Positions 196 to 16,809 of a stretch of 22,745 bases of DNA are shown piece by piece (the stretch's first letter is position 1; the number at the start of each line of letters is the position of its first letter). Origin of the DNA: a virus (lineage: Duplodnaviria > Heunggongvirae > Uroviricota > Caudoviricetes); IMG/VR virus record IMGVR_UViG_2778261182_000009, positions 1 through 22,745 of that record. One strand, 5' to 3'. The notes under the pieces were generated by a model. That model had not been told where the DNA came from. It saw nothing but the letters and a program-made list of their open reading frames with translations, and searched no databases. The position numbers and the translations under genes were made by a program.

Positions 196-369
196 TCGCC
201 CGTAAGAGCAGAATATTTTGCTGAAAAATGAAGGGTGCTCCAGCGTCCGGAAAGCATGAAATTCTGTGTTTGCGGTCATTCAATAAAATAAATTCTTTCT
301 TTCGCCGCGAATACTCAAATGTTGATCAGCGCCTGCTGCGGTGACGGGCTTCGATATCAGGAGACGATG

Positions 370-666
370 ATGGAAAAAACAGAAAACAAACCGATTGTAA
401 TTGGTGCTGATGCTGCTCCGTTTAAGTTTGAGTTGTCTCAACTGGTGGAGATGCGCATCAGTGATGAATGGGGTGAGGTTAAAGCCCGCGCGCAGTATGC
501 GGATGGCGAAAACCAGTACTTGATCCACTACAAAGCTGCTGATGGTCGTGCCACAACGGAGTGGTTTGGTGAGTCAATGCTGGAAGCAACAGAAGATGAT
601 CGTCATCCTGGTTGTCCGGTATTTGCAGGTATGAAATTACCGGAAGGCGCAGTCGTTACTGAGTAA
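370..666 (+). CDS. Hypothetical acidic protein (moron-like ORF between lysis cassette and cos)
   Basis: ORF 319..666 in the six-frame track; AGGAG at 359-363 favours the ATG at 367 or 370 (MMEKTENKP...). I recognise no homolog from sequence. It sits where lambda carries bor and other accessory genes. Confidence 0.45.
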   Translation: MEKTENKPIVIGADAAPFKFELSQLVEMRISDEWGEVKARAQYADGENQYLIHYKAADGRATTEWFGESMLEATEDDRHPGCPVFAGMKLPEGAVVTE

Positions 667-730
667 CAGACATTACAGCAGCCCTTCAGTGTGAGGGGCT
701 GCGATAATGCAGGTGTTAGAGTGCGTGTAA

Positions 731-960
731 ATGATAATCGCTCCCATTTTCACGGGTCCTTTCCGGAATCTGAAACACCGAGGGTACGCGTACGCGCAAA
801 AACGCGCTATTTATGAAAATTTTCAGGGAAAAAGCAGATCCGTTCTTCTTCTGGCTAACCTGTTGTTTAATAGAGTTTTCTTGAAAAAAAGAAAGGATCT
901 GGCAGCGGTGATTTTTCGCTGAAAAAAGCGTTTTGAGATCCTTTCTTCTTTTTGTGAGGA
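731..960. other. Lambda-type cos packaging site (cosQ-like, cosN candidate, cosB-like)
   Basis: By-eye alignment to the lambda cos region: ATGATAATC...CACGGGTCCTTTCCGG (about 731-766) matches the lambda right end and cosQ; CGCTATTTATGAAAATTTTC (805-824) and CCGTTCTTCTTC (840-851) match lambda cosB. An inverted repeat AAAGAAAGGATCT / AGATCCTTTCTT lies at about 866-945. The site is immediately upstream of the Nu1 homolog, as in lambda. Confidence 0.65.
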
Positions 961-969
961 ATATGTGCC

Positions 970-1518
970 GTGAAGGTTAACAAAAAGAAACTGGCGGAGA
1001 TTTTTGAGTGCGATGTCAGAACAATCACTGGCTGGCAAAGTCAGGGGCTGAGAGTTTTGTCGGGGGGAGGCAAAGGTATCGAGGCCATGTTCAATACTGC
1101 AGAAGCCATTGAGTGGTATGCGCAGCGGGAAAAAGATATCGAAAACGAAAAGCTCCGCAAGGAACTGGAAGATTTGCGTGCGGCTGCAGAATCAGATTTA
1201 CAACCCGGCACCATTGACTATGAACGCTACCGGCTCACAAAAGCACAGGCTGACGCACAGGAGCTGAAAAATGCCCGCGAAGAAGGGCTGGTGCTGGAAA
1301 CGGAATTGTTTACCTTCATTCTGCAACGTGTGGCTCAGGAGATTTCGGGAATACTTGTACGTGTGCCGCTGACATTACAGCGTAAATATCCGGATATTTC
1401 ACCGTCACACCTTGATGTGGTGAAAACTGAAATCGCAAAAGCCTCCAATGTTGCAGCTAAAGCCGGTGAAAACGTGGGCAGGTGGATTGATGATTTCAGA
1501 CGCACAGAAGGCAGCTAA
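970..1518 (+). CDS. nu1: Terminase small subunit (lambda Nu1 family)
   Basis: GTG start at 970 with GAGGA upstream. The translation ([36 protein letters not shown]...[14 protein letters not shown]...[28 protein letters not shown]) aligns along its length with lambda gpNu1 (MEVNKKQLADIFGASIRTIQNWQEQGMPVLRGGGKG...). Confidence 0.9.
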
Positions 1519-3406
1519 TGCAGCCGGTGCGATAGCCACAGGGCTTTTATCTCTCAATATTCCGGTACCACTGACGACAGTTCAGTGGGCTGATCGACAT
1601 TATTATCTGCCGAAAGAGTCTTCATATACCCCCGGGCAATGGGAAACACTGCCGTTTCAGGTCGCCATTATGAACAGCATGGGAAATGACCGGATCCGCA
1701 CTGTTAATCTGATTAAATCGGCGCGCGTTGGTTACACCAAAATGCTGTTGGGGGTGGAGGCTTATTTTATTGAGCATAAATCCCGTAACAGTCTGCTTTT
1801 TCAGCCAACAGATTCTGCTGCAGAAGATTTCATGAAATCTCATGTTGAGCCAACGATAAGGGATGTCCCTGCATTGCTGGAGCTGGCTCCATGGTTCGGA
1901 AGAAAGCACCGCGATAATACACTCACCCTGAAGCGTTTTTCCTCCGGTGTGGGTTTCTGGTGCCTGGGCGGTGCCGCTGCTAAAAACTACCGTGAAAAAT
2001 CTGTGGATGTGGTCTGCTATGACGAACTCTCCTCGTTTGAACCGGATGTGGAAAAAGAAGGCTCGCCGACGTTGCTTGGCGATAAACGTATCGAAGGCTC
2101 GGTATGGCCTAAATCCATACGCGGCTCAACGCCAAAAATCAAAGGTTCCTGTCAGATTGAGAAAGCCGCGAATGAATCTGCGCATTTCATGCGGTTTTAT
2201 GTCCCTTGCCCTCATTGCGGGGAGGCCCAGTATCTGAAGTTTGGCGATGATGCGACGCCGTTTGGCCTGAAATGGGAGAAGGGTAAACCGGAAACGGTGT
2301 ATTACCTGTGTGAACATAATGGCTGTGTGATCCGGCAGTCGGAACTTGACCAGAGCGACGGACGCTGGATTTGTGACAATACCGGGATGTGGACGCGTGA
2401 CGGCCTGACATTTTACAGCGCCGGTGATGAGGAGATGTCGCCACCGCGCTCAATCTCGTACCACATCTGGACGGCGTACAGTCCATTCACCACCTGGGTG
2501 CAGATTGTCTACGACTGGCTGGATGCGCTGAAGGACCCGAACGGCGTCAAGACGTTTATTAACACCACGCTCGGGGAGCCCTATGAAGAGGCTGTGGCAG
2601 AAAAGCTGAGTTTCGAGTTATTGCTGGAAAAGGTCTGTCACTATGGCGCGCAGGTTCCCCTGCGGGTGGTTTACCTGACCGCAGGGATCGACTCCCAGAA
2701 AGATCGCTATGAAATTTATGTATGGGGCTGGGCTCCCGGCGAAGAAGCCTTTCTGATTGACAAGCAAATTATCATGGGGCGACCGGAAGACGAGGACACC
2801 CTTAAACGTGTTGATGCGGTGATCCGGAAAAAATACCGCCATGCTGACGGTACTGAAATTTCCATTTCCCGCGTCTGCTGGGATACCGGTGGTATCGACC
2901 AGGACATTGTGTATCAGCGTTCCAGAAAACACGGAACTTTTTTTGTGCTTCCCATTAAAGGAGCATCGGTGTACGGCAAGCCGGTGATCACCATGCCCAA
3001 AAAGCGCAACCAGCGTGGGGTGTTTTTGTGTGAGGTGGGCTCTGATACCGTCAAGGAAATGCTGTACGCCCGTTTTGCCCTGCCGGTGGTCTCTGCCAGT
3101 GAAGCCGCCCCGTATACCTTCCGTTTTCCGGATAACCCGGACATTTTTTCGGAAGAAGAGGCGCGTCAGATCGTGGCGGAAGAACTGGTGGAGAAGGTGG
3201 TTAATGGCAGGGTGAAACTGCTGTGGGATAAAAAAGGGCGACGCAACGAAGCCCTCGACTGCCTGGTATATGCCTATGCTGCCCTGCGTATTTCAGTTCA
3301 GCGATGGCAGCTGGACCTTGAGGCACTGGCCCGGGCACGAAGAGATGAGCAGGACGAGGATGATATGAGCCTGGAAGAAATCGCGGCTGCACTGAGTGGA
3401 GGATAA
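1490..3406 (+). CDS. A: Terminase large subunit (lambda gpA family)
   Basis: ORF 1448..3406; homology to lambda gpA begins at the in-frame ATG at 1490 (MISDAQ..., AGGTGGA upstream). Long conserved blocks include [103 protein letters not shown]. Confidence 0.92.
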
Positions 3407-3409
3407 GTG

Positions 3410-3619
3410 ATGATTTATACACATGAGATGCTTTGCGAAGCGCGTCGGGCGCTGCATGAACTGATGATCGGGCGTGCTGTGGCTTCAGTCAGTAAGAACG
3501 GACGGCAGGTACAGTATTCGCGGGCGACGATTAATGAATTACGGCGATATATTGAGGAAATTGAAAGTGCGCTTGGAATGTCAGGTCGTCGCCGTGGCCC
3601 TGCAGGAGTACGACTGTGA
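3410..3619 (+). CDS. W: Head-tail joining / head completion protein (lambda gpW family)
   Basis: About 69 aa; the translation ...EARRALHELMIGRAVASVSKNGRQVQYSRATINELRRYIEEIE...RRRGPAG matches lambda gpW (...[27 protein letters not shown]...RRRGPAG). GGAGGA lies 6 nt upstream of the ATG at 3410; a GTG at 3407 is an alternative start. Confidence 0.8.
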   Translation: MIYTHEMLCEARRALHELMIGRAVASVSKNGRQVQYSRATINELRRYIEEIESALGMSGRRRGPAGVRL

Positions 3620-5187
3620 GCGGGGAACTGGTGGATCTTCATGGGCAACCTCTGCGGCATAGCATGGGATATTCCGGGGGTGGTACCGGATTTGGCGGGC
3701 AGCTTGCGGAATGGCTGCCTGCACCGGAAAGTGCTGATGTGGCACTCTTACCTTCCATTCAGCTGGGTAACGCCCGTGCGGACGATTTGGTCCGTAACAA
3801 CGGTATTGCCGCAAATGCTGTGGAAATTCATAAAGACCATATTGTCGGGCACATGTTTCGCCTGAGTTACCGACCCAACTGGCGCTGGCTGGGGATGTCG
3901 GAAGCTGATTCGCATGCCTTTATTGAAGATGTTGAGGCGGCGTGGATGGAATATTGCGATCCGGTGTTTGGTTCGATGGATGTGGAAGGGCGTCGCTCGT
4001 TTACCGAATTTATTCGTGAAGGGGTGGGGGTCCATACTTTTAACGGTGAAATTTTTGTCCAGCCCGTATGGGATACGGAATCCACGTCATTATTCCGGAC
4101 AAAATTCAAGACCATCAGTCCGAAGCGCGTCAGCACGCCCGGTTATGGCATCGGCGATCGTTTTATGCGTGCCGGAGTGGAAATCAACCGTTACGGAAAG
4201 GCGATTGCTTATCATGTTCAGGACGATGACTGGCCTGGCTACGGTGTCAGTAACTGGACACGGATTGCGGCGACGCTGCCCTCCGGGCGACCGGGAATGA
4301 TCCATGTGTTTCAGCCGCAGGAGGACGGACAGACGCGCGGGGCCAACCAGTTTTATTCCGTGATGGAGCGCCTCAAGATGCTCGACACACTGCAGGCAAC
4401 ACAACTGCAGTCGGCGGTGGTGCGGGCGATGTATGCCGCGACGATTGAATCCACACTGGATTCGGAAAAAGCATTTGAATATATCGCCGGGGTGGGAGAT
4501 GGCGGTAAAAACCCCCTGAACACCATCATGAAAGGGTATGCGCGCTATTACGCCACCAATACGGTAAAGATGGGTGGGGTTCGTATTCCGCATCTTTATC
4601 CGGGGGATTCACTGAATCTGCAGACAGCACAGAATGCGGATAATGGTTTCTCTGAACTGGAAAAGGCGCTGTTACGTTACATTGCTGCCGGACTGGGCGT
4701 GTCCTATGAGCAGCTTTCCCGTGATTATTCACAGGTCAGTTATTCCAGTGCCAGGGCATCCGCCAATGAGTCGTGGCGGTATTTTATGGGGAAACGAAAA
4801 TTTGTGGCCAGCCGTCTGGCGTCACAGATGTTTGCCTGCTGGCTGGAGGAAGCCCTTATTCGCGGTGTGATCCGCCCACCGAAATCCCGTTTCTCATTCT
4901 GGGAGGCTCGTTCCGGGTGGTGTCGTGCCGAGTGGATTGGTGCCGGCCGCATGGCGATTGATGGCCTTAAGGAGGTGCAGGAGGCGGTGATGCGTATTGA
5001 AGGTGGCCTGAGCACGTACGAGAAGGAGCTGGCCCTGATGGGTGATGACTATCAGGAGATTTTCCGTCAGCAACTGCGTGAAAGCCAGGAGCGACAGGCC
5101 GCCGGTCTTCCCCGCCCCATCTGGATAAAGGATACGTTTCAGCAGCAGATCCGACAGACAACGGGAGAAAAAGGCGATGCGTCGTAA
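3616..5187 (+). CDS. B: Portal protein (lambda gpB family)
   Basis: 523 aa, GTG start overlapping the W stop. Strong alignment to lambda gpB: GGGTGFGGQL, GNARADDLVRNNG, HVFQPQEDGQTRGANQFYSVMERLKMLDTLQATQLQSAVV, SLNLQTAQNADNGFS, LLRYIAAGLGVSYEQLSRDYSQVSYSSARASANESW, WIGAGRMAIDGLKEVQEAVMRIEGGLSTYEKE. Confidence 0.92.
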   Translation: MSGELVDLHGQPLRHSMGYSGGGTGFGGQLAEWLPAPESADVALLPSIQLGNARADDLVRNNGIAANAVEIHKDHIVGHMFRLSYRPNWRWLGMSEADSHAFIEDVEAAWMEYCDPVFGSMDVEGRRSFTEFIREGVGVHTFNGEIFVQPVWDTESTSLFRTKFKTISPKRVSTPGYGIGDRFMRAGVEINRYGKAIAYHVQDDDWPGYGVSNWTRIAATLPSGRPGMIHVFQPQEDGQTRGANQFYSVMERLKMLDTLQATQLQSAVVRAMYAATIESTLDSEKAFEYIAGVGDGGKNPLNTIMKGYARYYATNTVKMGGVRIPHLYPGDSLNLQTAQNADNGFSELEKALLRYIAAGLGVSYEQLSRDYSQVSYSSARASANESWRYFMGKRKFVASRLASQMFACWLEEALIRGVIRPPKSRFSFWEARSGWCRAEWIGAGRMAIDGLKEVQEAVMRIEGGLSTYEKELALMGDDYQEIFRQQLRESQERQAAGLPRPIWIKDTFQQQIRQTTGEKGDAS

Positions 5188-6793
5188 TTTATCGCATATT
5201 GCCGCCATGGCATTTAATGAACCGCTTTTACTGGAGCCCGCCTATGCGCGGGTTTTCTTTTGCGCGCTGGGTAAAGAGATGGGGGCCGGCAGCCTTGCCG
5301 TTCCTCAGCAGGCTGTTCAGCTTGATGCTGATGGTATGCAACTGGCTGTGACTGACTATATGGCGGGCGGTCAGCGTCCGGCAAAGAGTTACCAGGTGAA
5401 GAATGGCATCGCCATTCTGCCGGTGAGCGGCACGCTGGTGCATAAACTGGGTACCCTGCGCCCTTACTCCGGCATGACAGGCTATGACGGCCTGACTGCC
5501 CGTCTTCAGATGGCGGTGAATGATCCGGATGTGCGCGGCATTTTGCTGGATATCGACAGCCCGGGCGGTCAGGCTGCCGGGGCGTTTGACTGTGCTGACA
5601 TGATTTACCGCCTGCGGGAACAGAAGCCCGTGTGGGCGCTGTGTAATGATATGGCCTGTTCAGCCGCCATGTTGCTGGCGGCAGCCTGTACGCGTCGGCT
5701 GGTCACGCAGACGGCAAAAATTGGTTCGATTGGTGTGATGATGGCGCACACCAGTTACGAGAAACAACTGGCACAGGAAGGGGTGGACATCACGCTGATT
5801 TACTCCGGGCAGCACAAGGTTGACGGCAACAGTATTCAGGCATTGCCGGCAGGTGTGCGTGCAGATTTTCAGCGCCGTATTGATGAGGCCCGCCGGATGT
5901 TTGTCGACAAGGTGGCGCTTTATACGGGGCTGAGTTCAGAGGCGGTGATGAATACCGAGGCTGCCGTTTATGACGGTCAGGCAGGCATTGATGCAGGCCT
6001 GGCTGATCAACTGATTAATGCTGCAGATGCCGTTGAAGTGATGGTTTCTGTACTGAATGACTCTGTTACGAAGGAGAATGCAATGACTGTTAAAAATCTC
6101 ACCGTTGCTGAAGCGGTGGCCCAGGAAAATCAGCGCGTGATGGGGATCCTGAATTGTCAGGAGGCGAAAGGGCGCGAGCAACTGGCGCAAATGCTGGCAG
6201 GTCAGCCTGGAATGACGGTTGAGCAGGCGAAAACGTTGCTTGCAGCTGCGCCGGTTGCCGGTACTGACAGCACGGGTGATCAGATTATGGCGCTGCCGGA
6301 AGCAAAGGGGCGTGAGCAACTGGCACAGATGCTGGCAGGTCAACCGGGGATGACGGTGGAGCAGGCGAAAGCGTTTCTGGCAGCAGCCCCTGCTGCCAGT
6401 GCTGCAGGCACAGGCGATCAGATTATGGCGTTGCCGGAAGCTAAAGGGCGTGAACAACTCGCGCAGGCGCTGGCTGAACAGCCGGGAATGACCGTTGACC
6501 AGGCAAAAACGTTACTGGCGGCGGCACCGGTTGCCGGTTCTGCAAGTGTCGGCGATCAGATTATGGCGCTGCCGGAGGCGAAAGGGCGCAAGCAACTTGC
6601 ACAGGCACTGGCAGAACAACCGGGAATGACGGTGACGCAGGCGAAAACGTTGCTGGCAGCTGCACCGGCGGCATCGCAACCGTCACAGGAAACACTTTTT
6701 GATCGCTTTATGGCACAGCATGCTGCCAGTGCGGTTTCCGGAGGCGGAACTGCCGGGCACGGAGAAGAAGATCTGCTGATGAGTATGCCGTAA
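5177..6793 (+). CDS. C: Head maturation protease / minor capsid protein C (lambda gpC, S49 peptidase family)
   Basis: The N-terminus MRRNLSHIAAMAFNEPLLLEPAYARVFFCAL matches lambda gpC (MTAELRNLPHIASMAFNEPLMLEPAYARVFFCAL). The protease core is conserved (PVSGTL, PYSGMTGY, PVWALCNDMACSAAMLLAAA, TGSIGVMMAH, LIYSGQHKVDGN, TEAAVYDGQ...IDAGLAD). The C-terminal part overlaps the Nu3 scaffold frame as in lambda. Confidence 0.88.
   Translation: MRRNLSHIAAMAFNEPLLLEPAYARVFFCALGKEMGAGSLAVPQQAVQLDADGMQLAVTDYMAGGQRPAKSYQVKNGIAILPVSGTLVHKLGTLRPYSGMTGYDGLTARLQMAVNDPDVRGILLDIDSPGGQAAGAFDCADMIYRLREQKPVWALCNDMACSAAMLLAAACTRRLVTQTAKIGSIGVMMAHTSYEKQLAQEGVDITLIYSGQHKVDGNSIQALPAGVRADFQRRIDEARRMFVDKVALYTGLSSEAVMNTEAAVYDGQAGIDAGLADQLINAADAVEVMVSVLNDSVTKENAMTVKNLTVAEAVAQENQRVMGILNCQEAKGREQLAQMLAGQPGMTVEQAKTLLAAAPVAGTDSTGDQIMALPEAKGREQLAQMLAGQPGMTVEQAKAFLAAAPAASAAGTGDQIMALPEAKGREQLAQALAEQPGMTVDQAKTLLAAAPVAGSASVGDQIMALPEAKGRKQLAQALAEQPGMTVTQAKTLLAAAPAASQPSQETLFDRFMAQHAASAVSGGGTAGHGEEDLLMSMP
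6083..6793 (+). CDS. nu3: Scaffolding protein (lambda Nu3-like), nested in-frame in the 3' part of gene C
   Basis: An in-frame ATG at 6083 is preceded by AAGGAG at 6071-6076. The downstream sequence (MTVKNLTVAEAVAQENQRVMGILNCQEAKGREQLAQMLAGQPGMTV...) resembles lambda Nu3 (…ITAAVAAENSRIMGILNCEEAHGREEQARVLAETPGMTV…). Separate expression is inferred from the lambda precedent. Confidence 0.55.
   Translation: MTVKNLTVAEAVAQENQRVMGILNCQEAKGREQLAQMLAGQPGMTVEQAKTLLAAAPVAGTDSTGDQIMALPEAKGREQLAQMLAGQPGMTVEQAKAFLAAAPAASAAGTGDQIMALPEAKGREQLAQALAEQPGMTVDQAKTLLAAAPVAGSASVGDQIMALPEAKGRKQLAQALAEQPGMTVTQAKTLLAAAPAASQPSQETLFDRFMAQHAASAVSGGGTAGHGEEDLLMSMP
6161..6670 (+). repeat. In-frame tandem repeat, about 4 copies of 138 bp (46 aa), inside the C/Nu3 scaffold coding region
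   Basis: Copies begin at about 6161, 6299, 6437 and 6575. Each encodes EAKGREQLAQ(M/A)LA(G/E)QPGMTV(E/D/T)QAK(T/A)(L/F)LAAAP...GDQIMALP; the last copy diverges after AAAPAAS. Seen directly in the nucleotide and protein sequence. Confidence 0.85.
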
Positions 6794-6830
6794 GCGTTAT
6801 CCGTGATTCAGATAAATCAGGAGACTGAAA

Positions 6831-7166
6831 ATGATTAAAACAACCACAGAAAAGCGCGCGGATGTGCATATTTTTGCCGGAAGCGATCCGGCGCATACCG
6901 CAACAGCCACCAGTGGTATCAGTGCTGCCACGCCTGCACTGACGCCACTGATGCTGGATGACGCCACCGGCAAACTGGTGGCATGGGATGGTCAGAAAGC
7001 CGGAACGGCAGTGGGCGTGCTGGCTCTGGCGCTTGCCGGAACAGAACCCATGCTGACGTACTACAAAAGCGGTACATTTGCCACTGAGTCGCTGGTCTGG
7101 CCTGATTCTGTGGATGCGGTGAAAAAAGCCAACGCATTTGTGGGAAGTGCCATCAGCTACGCCTGA
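6831..7166 (+). CDS. D: Head decoration protein (lambda gpD family)
   Basis: 111 aa; the translation (...[37 protein letters not shown]...[16 protein letters not shown]...) aligns with lambda gpD (...[37 protein letters not shown]...FYKSGTFRYEDVLWPE...). Good RBS CAGGAG upstream. Confidence 0.88.
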   Translation: [111 protein letters not shown]

Positions 7167-7187
7167 TGGTGAAGTGATTGACTGAAA

Positions 7188-7220
7188 AAACGGGTCGCGA
7201 TGCGGCCCGTTTGTGTTTCT
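7188..7220 (+). terminator. Putative intrinsic terminator / attenuator hairpin between D and E
   Basis: AAACGGGTCGC...GCGGCCCGTTT imperfect GC-rich stem followed by GTGTTTCT, directly after the D stop codon. Confidence 0.35.
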
Positions 7221-7235
7221 GAAGGAAAATAAATT

Positions 7236-8264
7236 ATGGGGTTATTTACCACGCGTCAGTTACTCGGGTACACCGAGCAGAAAGTGAAATTTCGTGCGCT
7301 GTTTCTGGAGCTGTTCTTTCGTCGCACGATCACTTTCCATACTCAGGAAGTCATGCTGGATAAAATTACCGGCAAAACACCGGTTGCGGCGTATGTGTCT
7401 CCGGTGGTGTCAGGCAAAGTGCTGCGCAGCCGTGGTGGTGAAACCCGCGTGTTACGTCCCGGTTATGTAAAACCAAAACACCGCTTTGATTATCAGCAGG
7501 CAGTGGAACGTCTTCCGGGGGAAGATCCGGCCCGTCTTAATGACCCGGCCTACCGCCGCCTGCGTATTCTGACTGACAACCTGAAGCAGGAAGAGCAGGC
7601 GATTGTGCAGGTGGAAGAAATGCAGGCGGTCAGTGCCGTTCTGCAGGGGAAGTACACCATGAGCGGGGAACAGTTTGAGACGGTGGAAGTGGATTTTGGG
7701 CGCTCTGCCGCCAATAACATTACGCAGGCTGGCGGACGCGAATGGTCACAGCAGAATGCTGACACCTTTGATCCAACGCACGATCTGGATGCGTACTGCG
7801 ATTTTGCCTCCGGGACCATCAATATCGCGATTATGGATGGCACGGTCTGGCGTATGCTGAATGGCTTTAAGCTTTTCCGTGAAAAACTGGATACCCGTCG
7901 TGGTTCAAAATCGGAACTGGAAACCGCGCTGAAAGATCTGGGCTCCGTGGTCTCTTTTAAGGGGTATTACGGTGATCTGGCCATTGTTGTGGCGAAGACA
8001 ACGTATGTTGACGAAAACGGGGATGAACAGCGTTATCTGCCGGAAGGTACACTGATTCTGGGGAATACTCAGGCGGAAGGCGTCCGTTGTTATGGTGCCA
8101 TTCAGGATAATCAGGCGCTGAGTGAAGGGATCACCTCTGCAATTCGTTATCCAAAACACTGGCTGGAGGTGGGTGATCCTGGTTGCGAATATACCATGAC
8201 ACAGTCTGCGCCGTTGATGGTGTTGCCGGATCCTGACGCGTTTGTGGTGGTTCAGGTGAAATAA
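7236..8264 (+). CDS. E: Major capsid protein (lambda gpE family)
   Basis: 342 aa; extensive alignment to lambda gpE: YVSPVVSGKVLRSRGG, PGYVKPKH, RLPGEDPARLNDPAYRRLRI, EEMQAVSAVLQGKYTMSGE, KLDTRRGSKSELETALKDLG, LGNTQA, YTMTQSAPLMVLPDPDAFVVVQ. Confidence 0.93.
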   Translation: MGLFTTRQLLGYTEQKVKFRALFLELFFRRTITFHTQEVMLDKITGKTPVAAYVSPVVSGKVLRSRGGETRVLRPGYVKPKHRFDYQQAVERLPGEDPARLNDPAYRRLRILTDNLKQEEQAIVQVEEMQAVSAVLQGKYTMSGEQFETVEVDFGRSAANNITQAGGREWSQQNADTFDPTHDLDAYCDFASGTINIAIMDGTVWRMLNGFKLFREKLDTRRGSKSELETALKDLGSVVSFKGYYGDLAIVVAKTTYVDENGDEQRYLPEGTLILGNTQAEGVRCYGAIQDNQALSEGITSAIRYPKHWLEVGDPGCEYTMTQSAPLMVLPDPDAFVVVQVK

Positions 8265-8266
8265 GA

Positions 8267-8295
8267 CGGGGCGGGATATACCCGCCTTTTTCTTT
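8267..8295 (+). terminator. Rho-independent terminator after the major capsid gene
   Basis: GGCGGG (8270-8275), loop ATATA, CCCGCC (8281-8286), then TTTTTCTTT, immediately after the E stop codon. Confidence 0.7.
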
Positions 8296-8314
8296 ATCGC
8301 ACGGGAGAGATGTG

Positions 8315-8680
8315 ATGACAAAAGAGCAGATGACGGAACGCCTTCAGGCGCTGGCAGTGATTCTGGGGCGTGAAGCAGATATTTCAGGTTCAAAGGCCGA
8401 TCTTGAGCAGCGCCTGGCGGAATGGGAAGAGGAGGCCGCCGGATTCGATGGGGAGGATACCGGGGCGGAAGAGGTGGACAACGATGCATCCGGCGACGGG
8501 ATGCATTCTGAGCGGGGACTCGTCCGGGTGCGCATGCTGAAAACAGCGCATATGCCAGCCTGTGATGCTGTGACGGGAAAAATGTTGATGTTCGCCCGGG
8601 CCTCCAGTGTTGTGCTGGTTAATGAAGCCGCACTTCCTGCATTGCTGGCGGACGGTCTGGCAGAAAAAATTCGGGAGTAA
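8315..8680 (+). CDS. FI: DNA packaging / head assembly protein (lambda gpFI family)
   Basis: The N-terminus MTKEQMTERLQALAVILGREADISGSKADLEQRLAEWEEE resembles lambda gpFI (MTKDELIARLRSLGEQLNRDVSLTGTKEELALRVAELKEE); synteny after E. A GTG at 8312 is an alternative start. Confidence 0.75.
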   Translation: MTKEQMTERLQALAVILGREADISGSKADLEQRLAEWEEEAAGFDGEDTGAEEVDNDASGDGMHSERGLVRVRMLKTAHMPACDAVTGKMLMFARASSVVLVNEAALPALLADGLAEKIRE

Positions 8681-9084: not shown

Positions 9085-9787
9085 GCGAAGCAGTGCCCGG
9101 CAGCGACGGCTGGCACGAAACCTCGTCGTCGATATTGATGAAGATGAGGTGCTGAGCATTATCGCTAAACTGGGTGGTTCAAAAAGTCAGATCCGTAAAG
9201 CCTGGGGTGTGGCACTGAAAAGAGCCGCGTCCGCACTGCGGATGAAGGCTATGGCAGAGTTTAAAAAACAGGTTGCCCCACGCAGTCAGAAAATGATCAA
9301 AAAGCGTGTTCTGCATAATTTTATCATTCGTCGTAACGGTGATGAGTTTGATGAGGCGAAGGTGTGGTTTGGCCTGAACGCCATCAAAGTACGTGATCTG
9401 CGCGGACGTATCAGTGGAGGGCGACGCGGTGAACGCCATCAGTTGCGCGATGAACGGGGACGTTTTGCACCGGCCACACGCCGAAGACAGGCCAGAGAAA
9501 TCCGTTTTAAACCTGCCGGGGAGGCAATACCGGTCACTACCTGGTCAGGTGAAGAGGCTTTCATTAATGAATTTGAGTCTGAAAACCGGAGCGGACGCAT
9601 TTCACGACGTAAGACGGTACTGGTCCGGCAGGCATCCGGACGACGAAGGGTGCGCGAAGCAGAAATTGATATTTATGAAGCCATGCTGAACCGTATAGAG
9701 GATTTTGTTTTCCCTGATGCGGAAGCACTGATCCTGAAAAATTTTGAGCATGAACTGAAATTCCGGGTATTTAAGGGGCTGGAGTGA
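9065..9787 (+). CDS. Hypothetical, strongly basic (Arg/Lys-rich) protein at the head-tail module junction; possible neck or tail completion protein
   Basis: ORF 9005..9787; the first in-frame ATG outside the FII frame conflict is at 9065 (MAVREHERSS...), so the start is uncertain. Very Arg-rich (e.g. RRGERHQLRDERGRFAPATRRRQAREIRFK, RRKTVLVRQASGRRRVRE). No homolog recognised; the function is inferred from position only. Confidence 0.45.
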   Translation: MAVREHERSSARQRRLARNLVVDIDEDEVLSIIAKLGGSKSQIRKAWGVALKRAASALRMKAMAEFKKQVAPRSQKMIKKRVLHNFIIRRNGDEFDEAKVWFGLNAIKVRDLRGRISGGRRGERHQLRDERGRFAPATRRRQAREIRFKPAGEAIPVTTWSGEEAFINEFESENRSGRISRRKTVLVRQASGRRRVREAEIDIYEAMLNRIEDFVFPDAEALILKNFEHELKFRVFKGLE

Positions 9788-10350
9788 TGGAACCATTGAT
9801 GATGGGAACCTGGCATCAGGCAGTGATTGACAGTCTGAAACAAATTCCCTGGGTGGAAGATGCCGATGAGTACCCGGAAAAAGTGACGCAACTGGTGACG
9901 CCTGCCGTGTTTGTGGATGTACCCGGCTGGGACAAGGCTCAGTTTGCCGACGGGCAGACACGGGTCACGCTGAAATGCGATCTGTTTGTGGTGACAGACC
10001 GGGCCGGGAAGACGGAAAACGTGCCAAAACCGCAGATATTTGCCCGCTGTCTGGCAATGGATTTATCTGACTGGATTGATGGAGCCACGTTCGGGCTGGA
10101 TAACGTTGACCCGGCGGTTTTTATCGATGCTGAGGTGGATACCTTCGACCGGCTGCTGGACGACTACATCGTTTTCCGTGTCTCTTTTGAACAGGACATT
10201 CCGGTCGGCGAAGATCCGTTTGCAGTTCCGGCAGGTGCGCCGTTACAGGAAGTCTGGCTGGGTAAAGTACCGGAAACCGGTAAAAAGCATGTGCAGGATT
10301 ATCGTCTTATCTGGAAAGCGGAGGGCACCGGCGATGAGTCTGGCGGATGA
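9784..10350 (+). CDS. Hypothetical acidic protein, possible tail completion or virion morphogenesis protein (occupies the P2 gpR/gpS position)
   Basis: 188 aa ORF with start overlapping the previous stop and end overlapping the gpV start. It lies immediately upstream of the V-W-J-I block, where P2 encodes the tail completion proteins R and S. No direct homology recognised. Confidence 0.45.
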   Translation: MMEPLMMGTWHQAVIDSLKQIPWVEDADEYPEKVTQLVTPAVFVDVPGWDKAQFADGQTRVTLKCDLFVVTDRAGKTENVPKPQIFARCLAMDLSDWIDGATFGLDNVDPAVFIDAEVDTFDRLLDDYIVFRVSFEQDIPVGEDPFAVPAGAPLQEVWLGKVPETGKKHVQDYRLIWKAEGTGDESGG

Positions 10351-10957
10351 AGTGGCAGAGTTACGCCGCAGGGTGGCGGACATGGTCCGTCGCGGCGTGG
10401 TGGAAGAGGTGATCCCGGGTAGCCCGGTGATGGTCCGGGTGGATATCGGAGATGTGCTTTCGCCGCCGTTGCCCTGGATTCAGGTGCAGTCCGGGCGTTA
10501 CATGCAGGTCAGTAATTACCCGGCACCAGGAGATGCGGTCACGGTGATATCGGAGGCAGGTGATCTGCGTAATGGTCGGGTGTATCCGGGGGCCAACATT
10601 GACGCGATTCCGGTACCGGCGGGCAGTGAACACGAGCATGTTATTTTGTTTGATACCGGAACGGAGATCCGTTACGACCGTCAGGCTAATGCCCTGTCCA
10701 TCACGCTGGCTGAAGGCGGTAGCTATAAAATCACCGGCAGGGGAACGCTGGACGGTCCGGTGGAAATCACGGATACCCTGACTGTGCAGGGAAAAACGAA
10801 GATTAATGCCGATACGCAGGTTCTTGGCAATATCGGTGCCTCACAGGAGATCACCGACAAAACCGGTAGCATGAGTAAAATTCGCGAAATTTATAATACT
10901 CATGATCACCCTGGCGACAGCGGGGGAACCACCCGTAAACCTAACCAGAAAATGTAA
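10334..10957 (+). CDS. V: Baseplate spike / assembly protein V (P2 gpV family)
   Basis: ORF 10040..10957; the homologous protein begins at the ATG at 10334 (MSLADEVAELRRRVADMVRRGVVEEV...), resembling the P2 gpV N-terminus. The C-terminal ...HDHPGDSGGTT... matches the P2 gpV ...HKHPGDSGGTT... motif. Confidence 0.82.
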   Translation: MSLADEVAELRRRVADMVRRGVVEEVIPGSPVMVRVDIGDVLSPPLPWIQVQSGRYMQVSNYPAPGDAVTVISEAGDLRNGRVYPGANIDAIPVPAGSEHEHVILFDTGTEIRYDRQANALSITLAEGGSYKITGRGTLDGPVEITDTLTVQGKTKINADTQVLGNIGASQEITDKTGSMSKIREIYNTHDHPGDSGGTTRKPNQKM

Positions 10958-10980
10958 ACGCCGCACCGGCGTTTTTTTTT
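10957..10980 (+). terminator. Putative intrinsic terminator / attenuator between V and W
   Basis: AACGCCG, loop CAC, CGGCGTT, followed by a run of nine T, immediately after the V stop codon. Confidence 0.5.
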
Positions 10981-10992
10981 CGGAAAAATTTC

Positions 10993-11349
10993 ATGATTGG
11001 TATTGATTCAGCCACCGGCAGATATCTGCACGGTAACGAACATTTGCGTCAGTCCGTCACCGATATTTTATCAACACCGGTCGGCAGCCGGGTACTTCTC
11101 AGGGAATACGGCAGCAGGTTGTTCAGTCTGCTTGATAACCCACAGGATGATTTCACGCGGGTGAGGATTGTCCGTGAAACGGCAACCGCCCTTGAGCGCT
11201 GGGAACCCCGCCTGACCCTTCGGCGGGTGGAGGTGACGTGGACCGGAGAAGGAAGCGCCTGGCTGACGCTTGTCGGGGTGAACAACGAGACACAGGAAAC
11301 GATTCGACTCGAGGAGATAAAAATTGGCAACGTCTCAGGCAATCATTGA
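10993..11349 (+). CDS. W: Baseplate assembly protein W (P2 gpW family)
   Basis: 118 aa; ...SVTDILSTPVGSRVLLREYGSRLFSLLDNPQDD...ALERWEPRLTL... aligns with P2 gpW (...SIGDILRTPVGSRVMRRDYGSLLASMIDQPQ...LKWEPRVTL...). Confidence 0.82.
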   Translation: MIGIDSATGRYLHGNEHLRQSVTDILSTPVGSRVLLREYGSRLFSLLDNPQDDFTRVRIVRETATALERWEPRLTLRRVEVTWTGEGSAWLTLVGVNNETQETIRLEEIKIGNVSGNH

Positions 11350-12238
11350 TCTGTCCGCGATACCGGTACCGGATGCGGTGGAGGTGCCGGACACCGCTGT
11401 GCTGGTCACTCAGATAGTGGCGAAATATCAGGAGCTGGATACGTTGTTTTCGGCCATGGTGGAATCCGATCCGGCGTATAAATGGGCAGAGGCACTGGCT
11501 TTTCGTGTGGCGCTGATGCGCCAGCAGGTCAATGATGCTGTCCGGGGTGTACTGCTTGCCAGTGCCCGCAGGAACGATCTGGATCAGATTGGTGCGAATT
11601 TTCAGGTGCAACGTCTGGTCATTACCCCGGCAGATGACAGCACCATTCCGCCCACGCCTGCGGTGTATGAAGATGATGATGCTTTTCGCGAACGTATCCA
11701 GTTGTCATGGGCACGACTCAGCACCGCAGGCGCGAAAAACGCATATCACTATTTTGCACAGAGTGCCGATCCTGATGTGCTGGATGTGAAAGCCTACGGG
11801 CCGGAAACGCATTCACAGGAAGGGCGTGTTTTTCTTTATGTGTTATCGCGAACCGGAAACGGTACGGCATCACAACCCCTGCTGGATAAGGTGGCAGCGT
11901 CAGTCAATGATGATGAAATTCGACCTCTGACGGATTTTGTCAGCGTCCGTGCGGCAGAAATTATTCCCTACGATGTGGTGGCGGATATCCATATTCCCTA
12001 CGGGCTTGATGGTGAACTGGTGATGAAAAATGCCCGTCAGGCGCTGCAGACCTACACTGACAGTGTTCACCGGATTGGTTCTGTGGCGTCCTGCTCCGGT
12101 ATGGACGGAGCCCTGCATCAGACGGGGGTGATCACGGTGGCACTGAAATCGCCGGTCAGTGATATTGTTCCGGTGATGGGACAGGCTCCATGGTGTCGCT
12201 CAGTCACACTGAACAAGGTGGAGACAACCGATGAATGA
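11324..12238 (+). CDS. J: Baseplate assembly protein J (P2 gpJ family)
   Basis: 304 aa; probable TTG start at 11324 with GAGGAG 7 nt upstream. Conserved blocks against P2 gpJ: IIDLSAIPVPD, NDLDQIGANF, RLVITPADDSTIPPTPAV, RERIQ, YHYFAQSADPDV, VRPLTDFVSV. Confidence 0.85.
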   Translation: MATSQAIIDLSAIPVPDAVEVPDTAVLVTQIVAKYQELDTLFSAMVESDPAYKWAEALAFRVALMRQQVNDAVRGVLLASARRNDLDQIGANFQVQRLVITPADDSTIPPTPAVYEDDDAFRERIQLSWARLSTAGAKNAYHYFAQSADPDVLDVKAYGPETHSQEGRVFLYVLSRTGNGTASQPLLDKVAASVNDDEIRPLTDFVSVRAAEIIPYDVVADIHIPYGLDGELVMKNARQALQTYTDSVHRIGSVASCSGMDGALHQTGVITVALKSPVSDIVPVMGQAPWCRSVTLNKVETTDE

Positions 12239-14816
12239 CAAAATCAGAAGCATACTTCCTGTCAGCGCCAGCCGGGCAGAGCGGGTGGTGGACAGTACCG
12301 CCGGTGATATGCTGGCGGAAATCGCGGTCTGTCTGATCCGCTATGTCAAAAATCCCGATTTATGTCCGACGGAATTGCTGCCATGGCTGGCCTGGGAAAT
12401 GTCAGTGGATACCTGGAATGAGCACTGGACGGAGGCGGAAAAAAAGGCGGCGATAAAACGTGCTGCCTATATCCATCGTCACAGGGGAACAAAAGCCGCA
12501 CTGAATGAATCCCTGGCAGACAGTCCGTTCCGGTCGCAGATTGTGGAGTGGTATGAGCAGACGCCACCGGGAGATCCCTATACCTTCCGGCTGAATGTGG
12601 AGCAGAAGGATCTGCCGGTTCTGATGAGCGACCACCAGGATTTGAAACATGCCGTACTACGGGCCAAAAATCTGCGCAGCTGGTTCAGTATTCACGTTTA
12701 TGGAAACTGCCGGGGGAACGGATATGGTTATGGCTATGTGACGGCGACGGAAAAACTGAAAAATAAAATCATGCCATCACAGATCCTGTTGTCGCCGGAC
12801 AGTGTGCAACTGGCTCCCGGAGAAACGGTATCCATAAAAGTGACGATATTGCCACTGATCGCTGAAGATCGCACCTTCACTGTTCACCTGGCAGATGAAC
12901 GTGTGGCTGATATACAGGTTGATGGTGATGTAATCACCCTGACCGGCAGACAGTTCGGGTCCACCACGGTGACTGTGATGACGGTTAATGGTGTGACCGC
13001 CACGTTACCCGTAAGCATTGTGTCAGTCACCCGCGTTTTGATCCGGGTGGACAGTGTCAGCAGGCCATTATTTATGGTGGATCCCAGAGAAACAGGATTC
13101 ACCATTGATTATGGTGACGGAACAGATTCCCGGGACTACACCATTTCAGGGAACGATGTTATGACTACCCGGACACTGGCACCGGGGACGGAACTGATGC
13201 TGACGGTGAAAAACTGTGAAAGCATTACGTTTTATAAAACATATACGTCATCAAACCCGTTGCTGGAGATCATTCAGGTCTGTAGTCTGCGCACAAGTAT
13301 GTATCAGTTTGCATACGGGCACCGTGCGCTGAGAAAAATTCATGACGGAGCATTTGATTACCTGGTAAATGTGAATGATTTTGGCAGGGCGTTTATGGGG
13401 TGTTCTGCTCTGGAAACAGTCCCTGAACATTTGTTTGCCGCCTGTCAGCGGGTGCTCTATTTTTCGTATCTTTTCTGTGACTGTTCATCGTTGTCTGCAA
13501 TCCCGGATGGCCTTTTTGCCGGTGCCGGAGAAGTGGTTGATTTTCGTTATGTATTCAGTGGTTGCAGGAAACTTGCCTCCCTGCCTGAAGGATTGTTCGC
13601 CGACGCGGTTAATGCCACTGATTTTTCGTATGCATTCAATAACTGCAGTATGCTGACAGCACTACCCCCGCGTTTGTTTGCGGGAGCCGTATCAGCAACA
13701 AATTTCCACTATGTTTTTAATGGTTGTCGGGCGCTGACTTCCCTGCCGGATGATTTATTCCACGGACTTCATCAGGCCAGTATTTTCTCCCGGGCTTTTG
13801 CACTGACAGGTCTGACGCACCTGCCGGATAACCTGTTTGCTGAAACCCGTGGAACAAATTTTGACAGCGTTTTTTACTCTGCGGAAAAACTGACACGGGT
13901 TCCCCGCACGTTGTTCCATCTGCCGCTTCATGACGGGAATGTCAGAATTATACTGGATGGTGCTTTTGAGTTTTGTAGTGGGTTACTTACAATTGAGCCG
14001 GGTGTGTTTGATGACATTACGACGAAGATACGTTCAGCAAAGCGTGTATTTCGTCGCTGTTATGCACTGAAAGCGATACCGTCCCGTCTGTTTGCTGGTG
14101 CGGTGAACTGTGAATCTTTTAACACATCATTTGAAAGTTGTCTGGCGCTGACCTCCACTGGTGATGAAGTTTTCTCGGGGAGCGGGATCCAGGATGCACA
14201 ATTAATTTTTGCTTATTGCAGTAACCTGACAACGACAGGGGAAAGGTTGTTTGCCGACTGTCGTTCCCTGACGTCATACAACAATTGTTTTTCATCCTGT
14301 TCGTCACTAAGTCAGATCGGTGCAGGTATGTTGTCCGGCTGCGTTTCCCTGAGAACGGCTTATCATCTGTTGACCGATTCCGTGGGGAGTAACCGGGTGA
14401 CAACCGTGCCAGGGGATTTGTTCCGGGGATGTGTTTCCCTGAACAACATCAGCAGTCTGTTTGATTCCTGTGGTCAGTTAACATCAATTCCGGATGAACT
14501 TTTTGCTGATTGTCAGACGATACAGCATGCGGGGGGCGCATTTTCCCGGTGCGTGCGGTTACAACGTGTCCCGGCGGATATTGTTACGCCATCGACGACT
14601 GCATCCAGCCTGGCTTCCATGTTCCGCAACTGTGAACAGCTTGAAATGGATATCAACGATATATTTACCCGGAATTTCCCGTCGGGCTGTAATCTGCTGA
14701 CTATTTTTACCGGCTGTAAAAATGTGACCGGCAGTAAATCTGAATTTCTTGCAAAATTTCCGTCGCCCTCTGATGCAGAGAATGCCTTTTACGGGTGCGA
14801 CCGGCTGACAGACTGA
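12231..14816 (+). CDS. I: Baseplate protein I homolog (P2 gpI-like N-terminal ~175 aa) fused to a ~680 aa extension: predicted Ig-like domain plus a Cys-rich LRR-like repeat array
   Basis: One uninterrupted 861 aa ORF. Residues about 40-175 align with P2 gpI (NPDLCPTELLPWLAWEMSVDTWNEHWTEAEKKAAIKRAAYIHRHRGTKAAL...PPGDPYTFRLNV vs P2 NPDTCPANLLPWLAWAFSVDRWDEKWPEATKRAVIRDAYFIHCHKGTIGAI...PPGTFRLDI). Downstream come an Ig-like segment (SPDSVQLAPGETVSIKVTILP...TTVTVMTVNGVTATLPVSIVS) and 15-20 repeats of about 24 aa of the form F..C..L..(I/L)P..LFA......F...F. P2 gpI is only about 176 aa. Confidence 0.8.
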   Translation: MNDKIRSILPVSASRAERVVDSTAGDMLAEIAVCLIRYVKNPDLCPTELLPWLAWEMSVDTWNEHWTEAEKKAAIKRAAYIHRHRGTKAALNESLADSPFRSQIVEWYEQTPPGDPYTFRLNVEQKDLPVLMSDHQDLKHAVLRAKNLRSWFSIHVYGNCRGNGYGYGYVTATEKLKNKIMPSQILLSPDSVQLAPGETVSIKVTILPLIAEDRTFTVHLADERVADIQVDGDVITLTGRQFGSTTVTVMTVNGVTATLPVSIVSVTRVLIRVDSVSRPLFMVDPRETGFTIDYGDGTDSRDYTISGNDVMTTRTLAPGTELMLTVKNCESITFYKTYTSSNPLLEIIQVCSLRTSMYQFAYGHRALRKIHDGAFDYLVNVNDFGRAFMGCSALETVPEHLFAACQRVLYFSYLFCDCSSLSAIPDGLFAGAGEVVDFRYVFSGCRKLASLPEGLFADAVNATDFSYAFNNCSMLTALPPRLFAGAVSATNFHYVFNGCRALTSLPDDLFHGLHQASIFSRAFALTGLTHLPDNLFAETRGTNFDSVFYSAEKLTRVPRTLFHLPLHDGNVRIILDGAFEFCSGLLTIEPGVFDDITTKIRSAKRVFRRCYALKAIPSRLFAGAVNCESFNTSFESCLALTSTGDEVFSGSGIQDAQLIFAYCSNLTTTGERLFADCRSLTSYNNCFSSCSSLSQIGAGMLSGCVSLRTAYHLLTDSVGSNRVTTVPGDLFRGCVSLNNISSLFDSCGQLTSIPDELFADCQTIQHAGGAFSRCVRLQRVPADIVTPSTTASSLASMFRNCEQLEMDINDIFTRNFPSGCNLLTIFTGCKNVTGSKSEFLAKFPSPSDAENAFYGCDRLTD

Positions 14817-14826
14817 GGTTTTACAG

Positions 14827-16251
14827 ATGCATGGATTAACACTGACGACAGCAGGCGCGGCAGAGATTGAGGCTGCCTACCAGTCAGGACAGGTGGTGAC
14901 CATCACGCACGTGCTCACCGGTGATGGTGGCGGTCAGAAACTGCCTGAAACACCGGATGAAATGGCTGCAATGACAGGGCTGTATGGTCAGTTTGGTCAG
15001 GAGCCACTTTCTGCCGGTGAATCCGGAGAAGGATTTATCCGTGGTGAAATTGTTATTGACTGCAAAAAATACCCCGGAAAAACGCTGCGTGAACTGGGGA
15101 TGGTGAGTGCCAGCGGCACGCTGATAGCGTACGGGCGTTATCCGGATACGTATTTACCGGCACAGACAGATTCCGTCATCAAAGAGGTTATTCTGACGCT
15201 GGTACTGGGGCTGACGCATGCGCAGAATGTGACGCTGGAGCTTGACCCGTCCAGGGTGATTATCACGCAGGAGGCAGGAGATAAACGCTATCTGCGCATC
15301 AGCGAGAATCTTGCCGATGTGGAAGATAAAGATGAAGCAGTTGATAACCTCGGGTTAAAACCGACGGTGGACAAGGCAAAAAATGCCGTTCAGCGCGATG
15401 GTGACACCATGACCGGGGAGCTGAAAATCAGGAGAGTGAATGCGCTGCGAATTTTCGACGAAGCTTTTGGCCTGATTTTTCGTCGTTCGGAAGAGTGCCT
15501 GCACCTTATCCCTACCAGTGAAGGTCAGGGTGAAAATGGCGATATTGGCCCCCTGCGTCCGTTCACTATTAATCTGCGGACCGGTGAGATATCCATGTCG
15601 CACAAAGTGTCTGTTGGTTTTGGCTCTCAGGTGCAGGGCGCACTGGGTATCGGTGTTCAGAATGCGCTGGGCGGTAACTCAATTGCTTTCGGGGATAACG
15701 ATACAGGTATAAAACAAAACGGCGACGGCATTCTGGATGTTTATGCGAATGGACAGCATGTATTTCGTTTCCAGAATGGTGTGGCGACAGCGTTAAAAAA
15801 TATTCAGGCCGGAAATGCTAAAAAATTCACGTTATCCAGCGCCAACAACTCAACGAAAAACGCAACGTTTAATTTATGGGGCAATTCGTCCCGTCCTGTA
15901 GTTGCAGAGCTTGGTGATGATTCCGGCTGGCATTTTTACAGCCAGAGAAATACGGATAACAGTATAACGTTCGCTGTAAACGGACAGATGGTCCCGTCAA
16001 ATTATGGAAATTTCGATGCCCGTTACCAGACCAAATCAGGGGGCGTGCAGAATTTTCAGTACACCAGTGAGGTGTTTTACAACCCTGGTGGGAATGAGCG
16101 CAGCTGGACGTTTCGGGCACCTTCTGGTTGTGTTTTGTCAGGCATTAATGTTCAGGACACTGGCAGTAACTCTGCAGATAATATCGGTGGCGTGTATTAC
16201 AAACAGGCTCAGATTTATATTGATGGCGCATGGCGCTCAGTATCAGGTTAA
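14827..16251 (+). CDS. H: Tail fiber protein (P2 gpH family)
   Basis: 474 aa; the N-terminus ...LTTAGAAEIEAAY...TGDGGG is fiber-like, and a long block NALGGNSIAFGDNDTGIKQNGDGILDVYANGQHVFRFQNGVATALKNIQAGNAKKFTLSSANNSTKNATFNLWGNSSRPVVAELGDDSGWHFYSQRNTDNSITFAVNGQMVPSNYGNFDARY matches the P2 gpH family. Followed by a fiber assembly gene. Confidence 0.85.
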   Translation: MHGLTLTTAGAAEIEAAYQSGQVVTITHVLTGDGGGQKLPETPDEMAAMTGLYGQFGQEPLSAGESGEGFIRGEIVIDCKKYPGKTLRELGMVSASGTLIAYGRYPDTYLPAQTDSVIKEVILTLVLGLTHAQNVTLELDPSRVIITQEAGDKRYLRISENLADVEDKDEAVDNLGLKPTVDKAKNAVQRDGDTMTGELKIRRVNALRIFDEAFGLIFRRSEECLHLIPTSEGQGENGDIGPLRPFTINLRTGEISMSHKVSVGFGSQVQGALGIGVQNALGGNSIAFGDNDTGIKQNGDGILDVYANGQHVFRFQNGVATALKNIQAGNAKKFTLSSANNSTKNATFNLWGNSSRPVVAELGDDSGWHFYSQRNTDNSITFAVNGQMVPSNYGNFDARYQTKSGGVQNFQYTSEVFYNPGGNERSWTFRAPSGCVLSGINVQDTGSNSADNIGGVYYKQAQIYIDGAWRSVSG

Positions 16252-16264
16252 TTAAGGAAAAATA

Positions 16265-16792: not shown

Positions 16793-16809
16793 AAAAAGTG
16801 AATCAACAG

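Follow-up and report, generated by a model that had tools for sequence, protein, structure and literature searches.

A lambda-type cos site in an Escherichia coli prophage with a predicted cohesive end unlike that of lambda

Overview

The window analyzed here is the whole stretch of 22,745 nucleotides that makes up the IMG/VR virus record IMGVR_UViG_2778261182_000009. Its positions 754-969 are the cos site of an E. coli prophage that combines a lambda-type head with a P2-type contractile tail, and that this region is a cos site can be taken as almost certain. To judge from the sequence, it is a functional-looking lambda-type cos inside the prophage, with a cohesive end unlike lambda's, and all the computational evidence is concordant on this point. 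Comparison with relatives further indicates that the site belongs, as one allele among several, to a lineage with a hypervariable cohesive-end core, and that this lineage is tied to one clade of TerL nuclease domains. We are fairly confident in the joint account, namely a lambda-type cos with 12-nt 5' ends, a series of alleles, a core interior that the enzyme does not read and a palindrome that is incidental. The finding is incremental and does not represent a new kind of system.

Architecture of the cos site

Positions 731-969 of the window contain cosQ, an I2-like block and the repeats R3 (+), R2 (-) and R1 (+) with an IHF-like site, after which come the genes for TerS and TerL. The subsites keep both the order and the spacing of lambda through to the TerS start. 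The individual features are the following.

754-760, + strand: cosQ heptamer GGGTCCT, the packaging-termination signal; identical to lambda and to the annotated cosQ of the phage 21 record OL657228; separated by 22 bp from the predicted nick in the top strand (by 23 bp in both lambda and 21)
774-782, + strand: cosN left flank AACACCGAG; the lambda counterpart is CAGGTTACG
783-794, + strand: predicted 12-nt 5' cohesive end GGTACGCGTACG, the cosN core; placed in register with lambda, 21 and Gifsy-1
795-807, + strand: right flank CGCAAAAACGCGC; its first two bases, CG, adjoin the bottom-strand nick, as they do in lambda
805-824, + strand: I2-equivalent CGCTATTTATGAAAATTTTC; 20/20 identical to lambda bp 23-42, by alignment
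835-850, + strand: cosB R3 CAGATCCGTTCTTCTT, TerS binding-site homologue; bp 53-68 in lambda numbering; member of direct and inverted repeat families
856-868, - strand: putative I1-equivalent, an IHF-like site; reverse complement AAACAACAGGTTA, compared with AAACATTAAGTTA in the phage 21 annotation
886-901, - strand: cosB R2; inverted relative to R3 and R1
936-950, + strand: cosB R1 AGATCCTTTCTTCTT; from repeat search and motif enrichment
970-1518, + strand: TerS, Nu1 family, 182 aa, GTG start; Pfam PF07471, E = 3e-85
1490-3406, + strand: TerL, gpA family, likely ATG at 1490 (638 aa), ORF opening at 1448; PF05876 (ATPase, E = 9e-55) and PF20454 (nuclease, E = 1e-68)

The GTG of TerS at 970 is 188 bp from the predicted bp 1, compared with 191 bp in lambda and 189 bp in phage 21. 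Thus, the architecture that defines a lambda-type cos (cosQ, cosB and TerS/TerL) was found in full, whereas the sequence of cosN departs from its consensus. A scan of window positions 200-1100 for promoters and terminators returned nothing exceeding the shuffle expectation.

Alignment with lambda and phage 21 revealed three blocks of perfect identity: GGGTCCTTTCCGG (cosQ and its neighbours), CGCTATTTATGAAAATTTTC (I2) and CCGTTCTTCTTC (the R3 core). The initial annotation had the flanks matching lambda almost base for base, which is true of these blocks but not of the flanks overall, where identity to lambda is 37/53 left of cosN, 25/36 over bp 13-48 and 96/142 in cosB. Nor are Nu1 and A, which it took to be closely related to those of lambda, especially near to them: TerS is 53% and TerL 65% identical to lambda, whereas their identities to phage 21 reach 88% and 83%.

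The R motif AGATCCKTTCTT occurs in the 22.7 kb just three times, at 836-847 (+), 889-900 (-) and 936-947 (+), all inside cos; three matches were seen in none of 100 shuffles. The layout of the repeats is that of R3, R2 and R1 in lambda, with R3 and the IHF-like site at the positions predicted by lambda numbering. The latter sits between R3 and R2, where I1 is annotated in phage 21. The 88% identity of TerS to phage 21 (160/182) is concentrated outside the DNA-binding domain, and it is the C-terminal two-thirds of the protein that are phage 21-like. The N-terminal 54 aa are identical to Gifsy-1 at 39/54 positions, and the recognition helix RTITGWQS resembles RTVTAWQS of Gifsy-1. R repeats with an AGATCC core occur here together with the matching TerS helix, and R3 reads CAGATCCGTTCTTCTT in both phages. 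The cosB site and the TerS recognition helix are therefore best classified, at the sequence level, as Gifsy-1-type and not as lambda- or 21-type.

Prophage context

The cos site is followed by a lambda-type packaging and head module (970-8680) and by a P2-type contractile tail module (10040-22745). The packaging and head set is intact and comprises Nu1, gpA (ATPase and nuclease), W, the lambda-family portal (B), an S49 protease, D, E and FI. The tail genes include those for baseplate V/W/J/I, sheath, tube, tape measure, X and D. Left of cos are ORFs 13-195 and 319-666, which belong to PHROG families of unknown function. As first proposed, cos is internal to the phage sequence: it sits between small late-region ORFs and terS, as expected for a prophage. 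The closest prophage in a complete genome, that of E. coli 401651, is 95.7% identical over 97% of the window and shares its layout and annotation; there, holin and endolysin genes are found just upstream of the cos-left region. Relatives adjoin ydfJ in E. coli 401651.

Positions 12-718 of the window are 94.8% identical to the Stx2e phage phiP27. Homology with the other members of the clade starts abruptly at about 726, just before the conserved block on the cosQ side, which marks cos as a module boundary.

In the SerU-LTIIb record (KU052038), where LT-IIb toxin genes lie immediately upstream of cos, a 'NU1-like protein' CDS is annotated over cos at 6461-6679 and corresponds to ORF 731-922 of the window. 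We rejected this ORF as a NU1-like protein, since it has no family match and overlies cos, and the CDS in KU052038 is probably a mis-annotation.

A series of cohesive-end alleles

Scanning viral contigs with a cosQ...I2 pattern yielded at least 120 stretches. The majority of them carry the lambda 12-mer GGGCGGCGACCT, and the few variants among the matches listed all keep GGGCG at bp 1-5. The flank type of the window was found in 34 viral and 13 metagenome contigs and, among the species-representative genomes, in that of Buttiauxella. Since Buttiauxella ferragutiae was the single match in the scan of one genome per species, the group is essentially an E. coli strain-level one; about 81 of the 5,426 complete E. 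coli genomes have this cos type.

A tight group of 37 loci, defined by the right flank CGCAAAAA and composed of E. coli prophages and viral contigs with near-identical flanks, contains 12 different 12-mers. Across 33 distinct sequences, bp -1, 1, 2, 10, 11, 12 and 16 are invariant although the search pattern left these positions unconstrained (bp 13-15 were fixed by it). Base pairs 3-9 and -2 are variable in the same sequences, with entropy up to 2 bits, and CGCA at bp 13-16 is common to all relatives. When only the right side of the site was used as the anchor, positions -12 to -3, -1 and bp 1-2 proved to be near-invariant without being forced, and cosQ was near-invariant among 25 distinct relatives; bp -2 was A, G or C. 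Upstream of cosQ, the intergenic DNA likewise varies a great deal. The left flank AACACCGAG is present in Hafnia phage yong2 and phage vB_EcoM-705R4 as well.

Two metagenome contigs carry the exact allele of the window, GGTACGCGTACG: L163, with 98.1% identity to the window over 6.0 kb, and L166, with 97.7% over 8.8 kb. The allele is thus inherited and not an error. The same allele is absent from the 5,426 complete E. coli genomes. The closest complete-genome prophage, that of E. coli 401651, has GGTCTGGGGACG instead, with four of the seven core positions changed against a divergence of 3.1% elsewhere (binomial P = 3e-5).

Core sites only 1-2 bp apart show, taken in pairs, each of the four possible allele combinations. 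Several alleles look mosaic (for example, GGTCAT+GGGACG), and one 12-mer was found with different cosB types and different upstream DNA. Packaging from one cos allele to another produces a molecule with mismatched ends. The mosaic alleles and the 12-mers shared across contexts fit an exchange through such heteroduplex cohesive ends, whose mismatches survive into progeny, as found by Feiss and colleagues (PMC4669245).

Several individual loci deserve a separate description. In contig L178, GGTCTGGGGACG lies at about 3700-3760 on the minus strand behind a lambda-like left flank ending in CCACG (C at -2) and a variant cosQ region, an arrangement consistent with crossovers exactly at cos. One IMG/VR contig, L078, has two inverted AACACCACG/GGGCGGCAGACG cos sites about 1 kb apart, at 9602-9670 (+) and 10556-10624 (-), the outer sides of which carry different cosB types. 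Two IMG/VR prophage contigs from genome 2833053935 (L135 and L136) share the same cos flanks and differ by one base in their 12-mers, GGGTTTTAGACG and GGGCTTTAGACG; their cosQ-like motif is GGTACTTCC, not GGGTCCTTTC. Finally, phage vB_EcoM-705R4 (ON470624) has, at 3500-3620, cosQ followed by AACACCGAG/GGTCGGTAGACG/CGCAAAAAC without the I2 block, together with a different TerS and a TerL of 45% identity. The cosQ-cosN half of the site moves independently of cosB and TerS.

Register of the core and predicted nicks

Where lambda and phage 21 read GTTACG/GGGCGGCGACCT/CGCGGG, the window reads ACCGAG/GGTACGCGTACG/CGCAAA. The two 12-mers are identical at 6/12 positions in ungapped register, and, in agreement with the initial annotation, GGGCGGCGACCT was found on neither strand of the whole window. 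The string said to replace it, GGGTACGCGTACGCG, is present, but its coordinates are 782-796 and not about 783-797. Written as AG/GGTA CGCG TACG/CG, the site departs from the cosN consensus at bp -2, 3 and 4 and keeps positions -1, 1, 2, 13 and 14; bp 5 also differs from lambda. Lambda has 45 nt from GGGTCCTTTC to TATTTATG and the window 44 nt, the missing base being left of cosN. Because the gap from bp 12 to TATTTATG is 13 nt in every lambda-like site sampled (lambda, 21, Gifsy-1 and the relatives), we placed the 12-mer at 783-794. This register predicts nicks at 782/783 in the top strand and at 794/795 in the bottom strand, the former position being set solely by an assumed lambda-like stagger of 12 bp. 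We consider these exact positions probable.

The record of Hafnia phage yong2 ends with ...CACCGAG GGGGCAGCGACA and starts with CGCGGG, a boundary that aligns with 794/795 of the window. It is supportive of the predicted bottom-strand nick, with the proviso that the TerL of yong2 is only 25% identical; our search for a paper describing how the termini of this record were determined returned none. Of the phage records, which could place the nicks by their ends, just nine match the cos region, and none of 50,697 carries a TerL of this nuclease clade. Viral contigs matching the right-side-only pattern all have the site internally (0/29 start or end at cos).

It might be argued that the site is a working cos nicked elsewhere, for example with GTACGCGTAC as a 10-nt overhang or with a 13-14-nt overhang from 781 or 782. 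The spacing from cosQ to cosN is indeed 1 bp shorter than in lambda, and the top-strand nick is derived from the lambda-like stagger. Moreover, the G at -1 varies no more than G1 and G2 do, so that conservation alone does not fix the exact phosphodiester bond. However, the variable bp 3-9 fall inside the 12-mer with conserved bases at both its edges, the bottom-strand boundary matches the end of the yong2 record, and the nuclease domain is 62-79% identical to enzymes known for 12-nt ends. The palindrome that would form the 10-nt overhang is not conserved: it is broken in GGTACGTGTACG, the nearest allele (L154), which is one base off that of the window, and other alleles have only 2-4 of the six inner pairs symmetric. 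We therefore regard nicks at other positions as rather improbable. The preferred reading, a lambda-like cos with a cohesive end distinct from that of lambda, is what had been suggested at the outset, and the intact gene set, the subsite order, the inherited 12-mer and the invariant bases at the predicted nick sites all point to it.

Rates of change in the core

To compare the two types of cos sites, divergence per site was computed for the core and for four-fold degenerate sites of TerL.

Clade of the window: 17 loci, 10 distinct 12-mers; bp 3-9 0.474, bp 3-6 0.445, TerL four-fold sites 0.155
Lambda-flank group: 53 loci, 6 distinct 12-mers; bp 3-9 0.052, bp 3-6 0.019, TerL four-fold sites 0.372

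In the clade of the window, the core is about 3-5 times more divergent per site than the adjacent four-fold degenerate sites of TerL, and in 12 loci with TerL at least 98% identical (the window included) the values are 0.474 for bp 3-9 versus 0.096 for four-fold sites. Lambda-type sites show the opposite, with a core conserved about 7-fold more strongly than the TerL four-fold sites. Thus, the same element is strongly conserved in one lineage and outpaces linked silent sites in the other. These comparisons are pairwise with non-independent pairs, and recombination at cos could bring in old alleles, so that a core changing 'faster than neutral' does not by itself prove either selection or hypermutation. 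A further caveat is that the DNA upstream of cosQ varies as well.

Link between cosN type and the TerL nuclease domain

The TerL of the window is a mosaic. Its ATPase domain is 96-100% identical to gp2 of phage 21 over residues ~50-250, while the identity of its nuclease domain is only ~72% with 21 and 62% with lambda. Among 50,697 phage records, the latter domain is matched best by that of Gifsy-1 (78.8%), and these records include no isolated phage with a nuclease domain of this clade. No PDB relative of TerL was found by sequence. The mosaic junction is located at window positions ~2240-2400 (TerL residues ~250-300 in the numbering of the 652-aa ORF), where identity drops to ~62-78%. Past this junction, the nuclease domain of the window is as far from phage 21 as lambda is.

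Analysis of 74 complete TerLs revealed that the cosN type tracks the nuclease domain and not the ATPase domain. Sequences with a nuclease at least 97.9% identical to that of the window have the AACACCGRG flank and ten different 12-mers, irrespective of whether their ATPase domains are 99% or 82% alike. Conversely, the lambda cosN is found at locus L112, where identity is 96% for the ATPase domain but only 75% for the nuclease domain. Two intermediates with nuclease identity of 92-93% combine a CCGAG flank with either GGGCGGCGACCT or GGGCGGCAGACG. TerLs that are at least 98% identical serve eight cohesive ends of different sequence. Even phages with TerL identities of 45% (vB_EcoM-705R4) or 25% (yong2) retain the outer flank AACACCG. 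Taken together, these comparisons tie the hypervariable-core lineage to one TerL nuclease clade, with the site of the window as one of its alleles.

Could the variability simply reflect decay, with cosN being a mutated, non-functional remnant in a defective prophage? No isolated phage has a TerL of this nuclease clade, the relative SerU-LTIIb is clearly deleted after terS, and the exact allele is missing from the 5,426 complete E. coli genomes, all of which would suit such a history. Yet decay would not spare bp -1, 1, 2 and 10-16, cosQ, I2 and the R repeats while altering just bp 3-9. Furthermore, the head, packaging and tail ORFs of the window are all open and match their families, 17/17 related TerL ORFs assigned to the clade are complete, and the allele has been stably inherited across 2% divergence. 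A decayed remnant is thus very unlikely.

Palindrome and direct repeat

The initial annotation drew attention to a perfect palindrome, GTACGCGTAC, and to a direct repeat of GTACGC, and both are there, the former at 784-793 and the latter at 784 and 790. As functional features, however, they were rejected, because sister alleles lack both. The 16-bp cosN has partial two-fold symmetry, with 6/8 pairs (12/16 bp) in the window versus 10/16 bp in lambda (a hand count, with the inner six pairs calculated), and the inner pairs of the other alleles are no more symmetric than those of lambda. Palindrome and repeat are confined to this one allele, and the palindrome is incidental. The predicted overhang GGTACGCGTACG is self-complementary at 10/12 positions, so like ends could pair in vitro, for this allele only. 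That the perfect 10-bp palindrome at 784-793 (it contains ACGCGT, GTAC twice and CGCG) is a site for another protein, such as a regulator or a restriction-modification enzyme, overlaid on cos can be practically dismissed: with G2 and C11 fixed, four further symmetric pairs are expected by chance in ~1/256 alleles and at least 12 alleles were sampled, relatives with 96-98% identical surroundings have non-palindromic cores, and the neighbouring genes point to no such factor.

Proposed mechanism of cutting

By analogy with lambda, TerS dimers would bind the three AGATCCKTTCTT repeats (R3, R2 and R1), with the DNA bent at I1. TerS would then anchor TerL such that the bottom strand is nicked between 794 and 795, and the top-strand nick, at 782/783 and thus ahead of bp 1, would be made by a second TerL. 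The expected products are 12-nt 5' cohesive ends, with GGTACGCGTACG at the left end and its complement at the right end, and cosQ (754-760) would serve termination at the next cos.

In lambda, it is the second, top-strand cut that is sequence-sensitive. In the present lineage, the constant positions are bp -1, 1, 2 and 10-12, CGCA behind the cut and, on the left, the outer flank AACACCG; bp 3-9 and -2 are free. From this pattern of constant and variable positions we infer that the enzyme reads bases at and outside the nicks and not the interior, including bp 3-6, which are conserved in lambda-type sites. The nuclease lineage would accordingly use bp -1 to 2 together with the outer flank to place its cut in the top strand, so that the interior is free to vary.

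A broader interpretation, which we offer only tentatively, is that this TerL nuclease lineage moved top-strand recognition from the left half GGGCGG to the AACACCGRG flank, and that the variety of ends is selected or driven by damage and repair rather than by drift. If true, the shift in recognition frees 7/12 cohesive-end bases. Selection might then favour 'private' ends, which block productive joining or mis-termination between, for example, co-resident related prophages or, alternatively, escape satellites that carry cos. Another possible driver is damage to the single-stranded overhang combined with heteroduplex repair after packaging between unlike cos sites.

The alleles represent a ready-made series with which to ask what contacts set the place of the top-strand nick, the un-anchored one. 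They also bear on cohesive-end compatibility as a limit to exchange among co-resident prophages, on the prediction of phage termini from sequence and on the design of cos vectors with orthogonal ends.

Comparison with known systems

The cos site of lambda is the textbook model of sequence-specific genome packaging. Natural variation of cosN has reportedly been surveyed by Vahanian et al. in 2017 (Virology 509:140), and the hypervariable group may already be tabulated there. A passage in PMC9303873, citing Vahanian et al. 2017, describes as highly conserved the first four bp together with the two bp that flank the site on either side. The CG pairs that border the nicks, cosQ and cosN's left half are under selection, and mutation of G2 is the classic severe cosN defect (PMC4669245). 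Known natural differences are confined to bp 7-12, with N15 and phiD326 differing at bp 9 and 12 and Gifsy-1 at 8, 9 and 11 (PMC4669245). The group of the window shows a natural enzyme lineage in which bp 3-6 of the left half and bp -2 are free as well.

The window shares with lambda the cosQ heptamer, the 20-bp I2 block, the order R3(+)-I1-R2(-)-R1(+) and a TerS start ~190 bp from bp 1, and it keeps G-1, G1, G2, C11 and the CG after the bottom-strand nick. It differs from lambda in the 12-mer at bp 3, 4 and 5, within the left half that has been described as conserved and sensitive to mutation, in bp -2 (A instead of C), in a cosQ-to-cosN distance shorter by 1 bp and in the R repeats (AGATCC instead of GTTTCC). 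Phage 21 has the closest terminase, with TerS 88% identical and the TerL ATPase domain 96-100% identical over residues ~50-250, but its cosN is that of lambda, its R type (TGTCGG) is its own and its nuclease domain is only ~72% identical.

Gifsy-1 resembles the window in the type of R repeats and the TerS recognition helix, and its TerL nuclease is the closest among sequenced phages (78.8%). In contrast to the window, Gifsy-1 keeps the lambda left flank GTTACG and the left half GGGCGG, and its 12-mer, GGGCGGCAGCGT, differs from that of lambda only at bp 8, 9 and 11 (PMC4669245). The phages N15, phiD326 and mEp237 (the latter with GGGCGGCGTCCG) likewise have natural cohesive-end variants that are tolerated by the same enzyme family (PMC4669245). 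Their differences are limited to the right half (bp 7-12), whereas the group of the window also varies at bp 3-6 and -2 and, unlike these phages, has many alleles coexisting under one nearly identical TerL.
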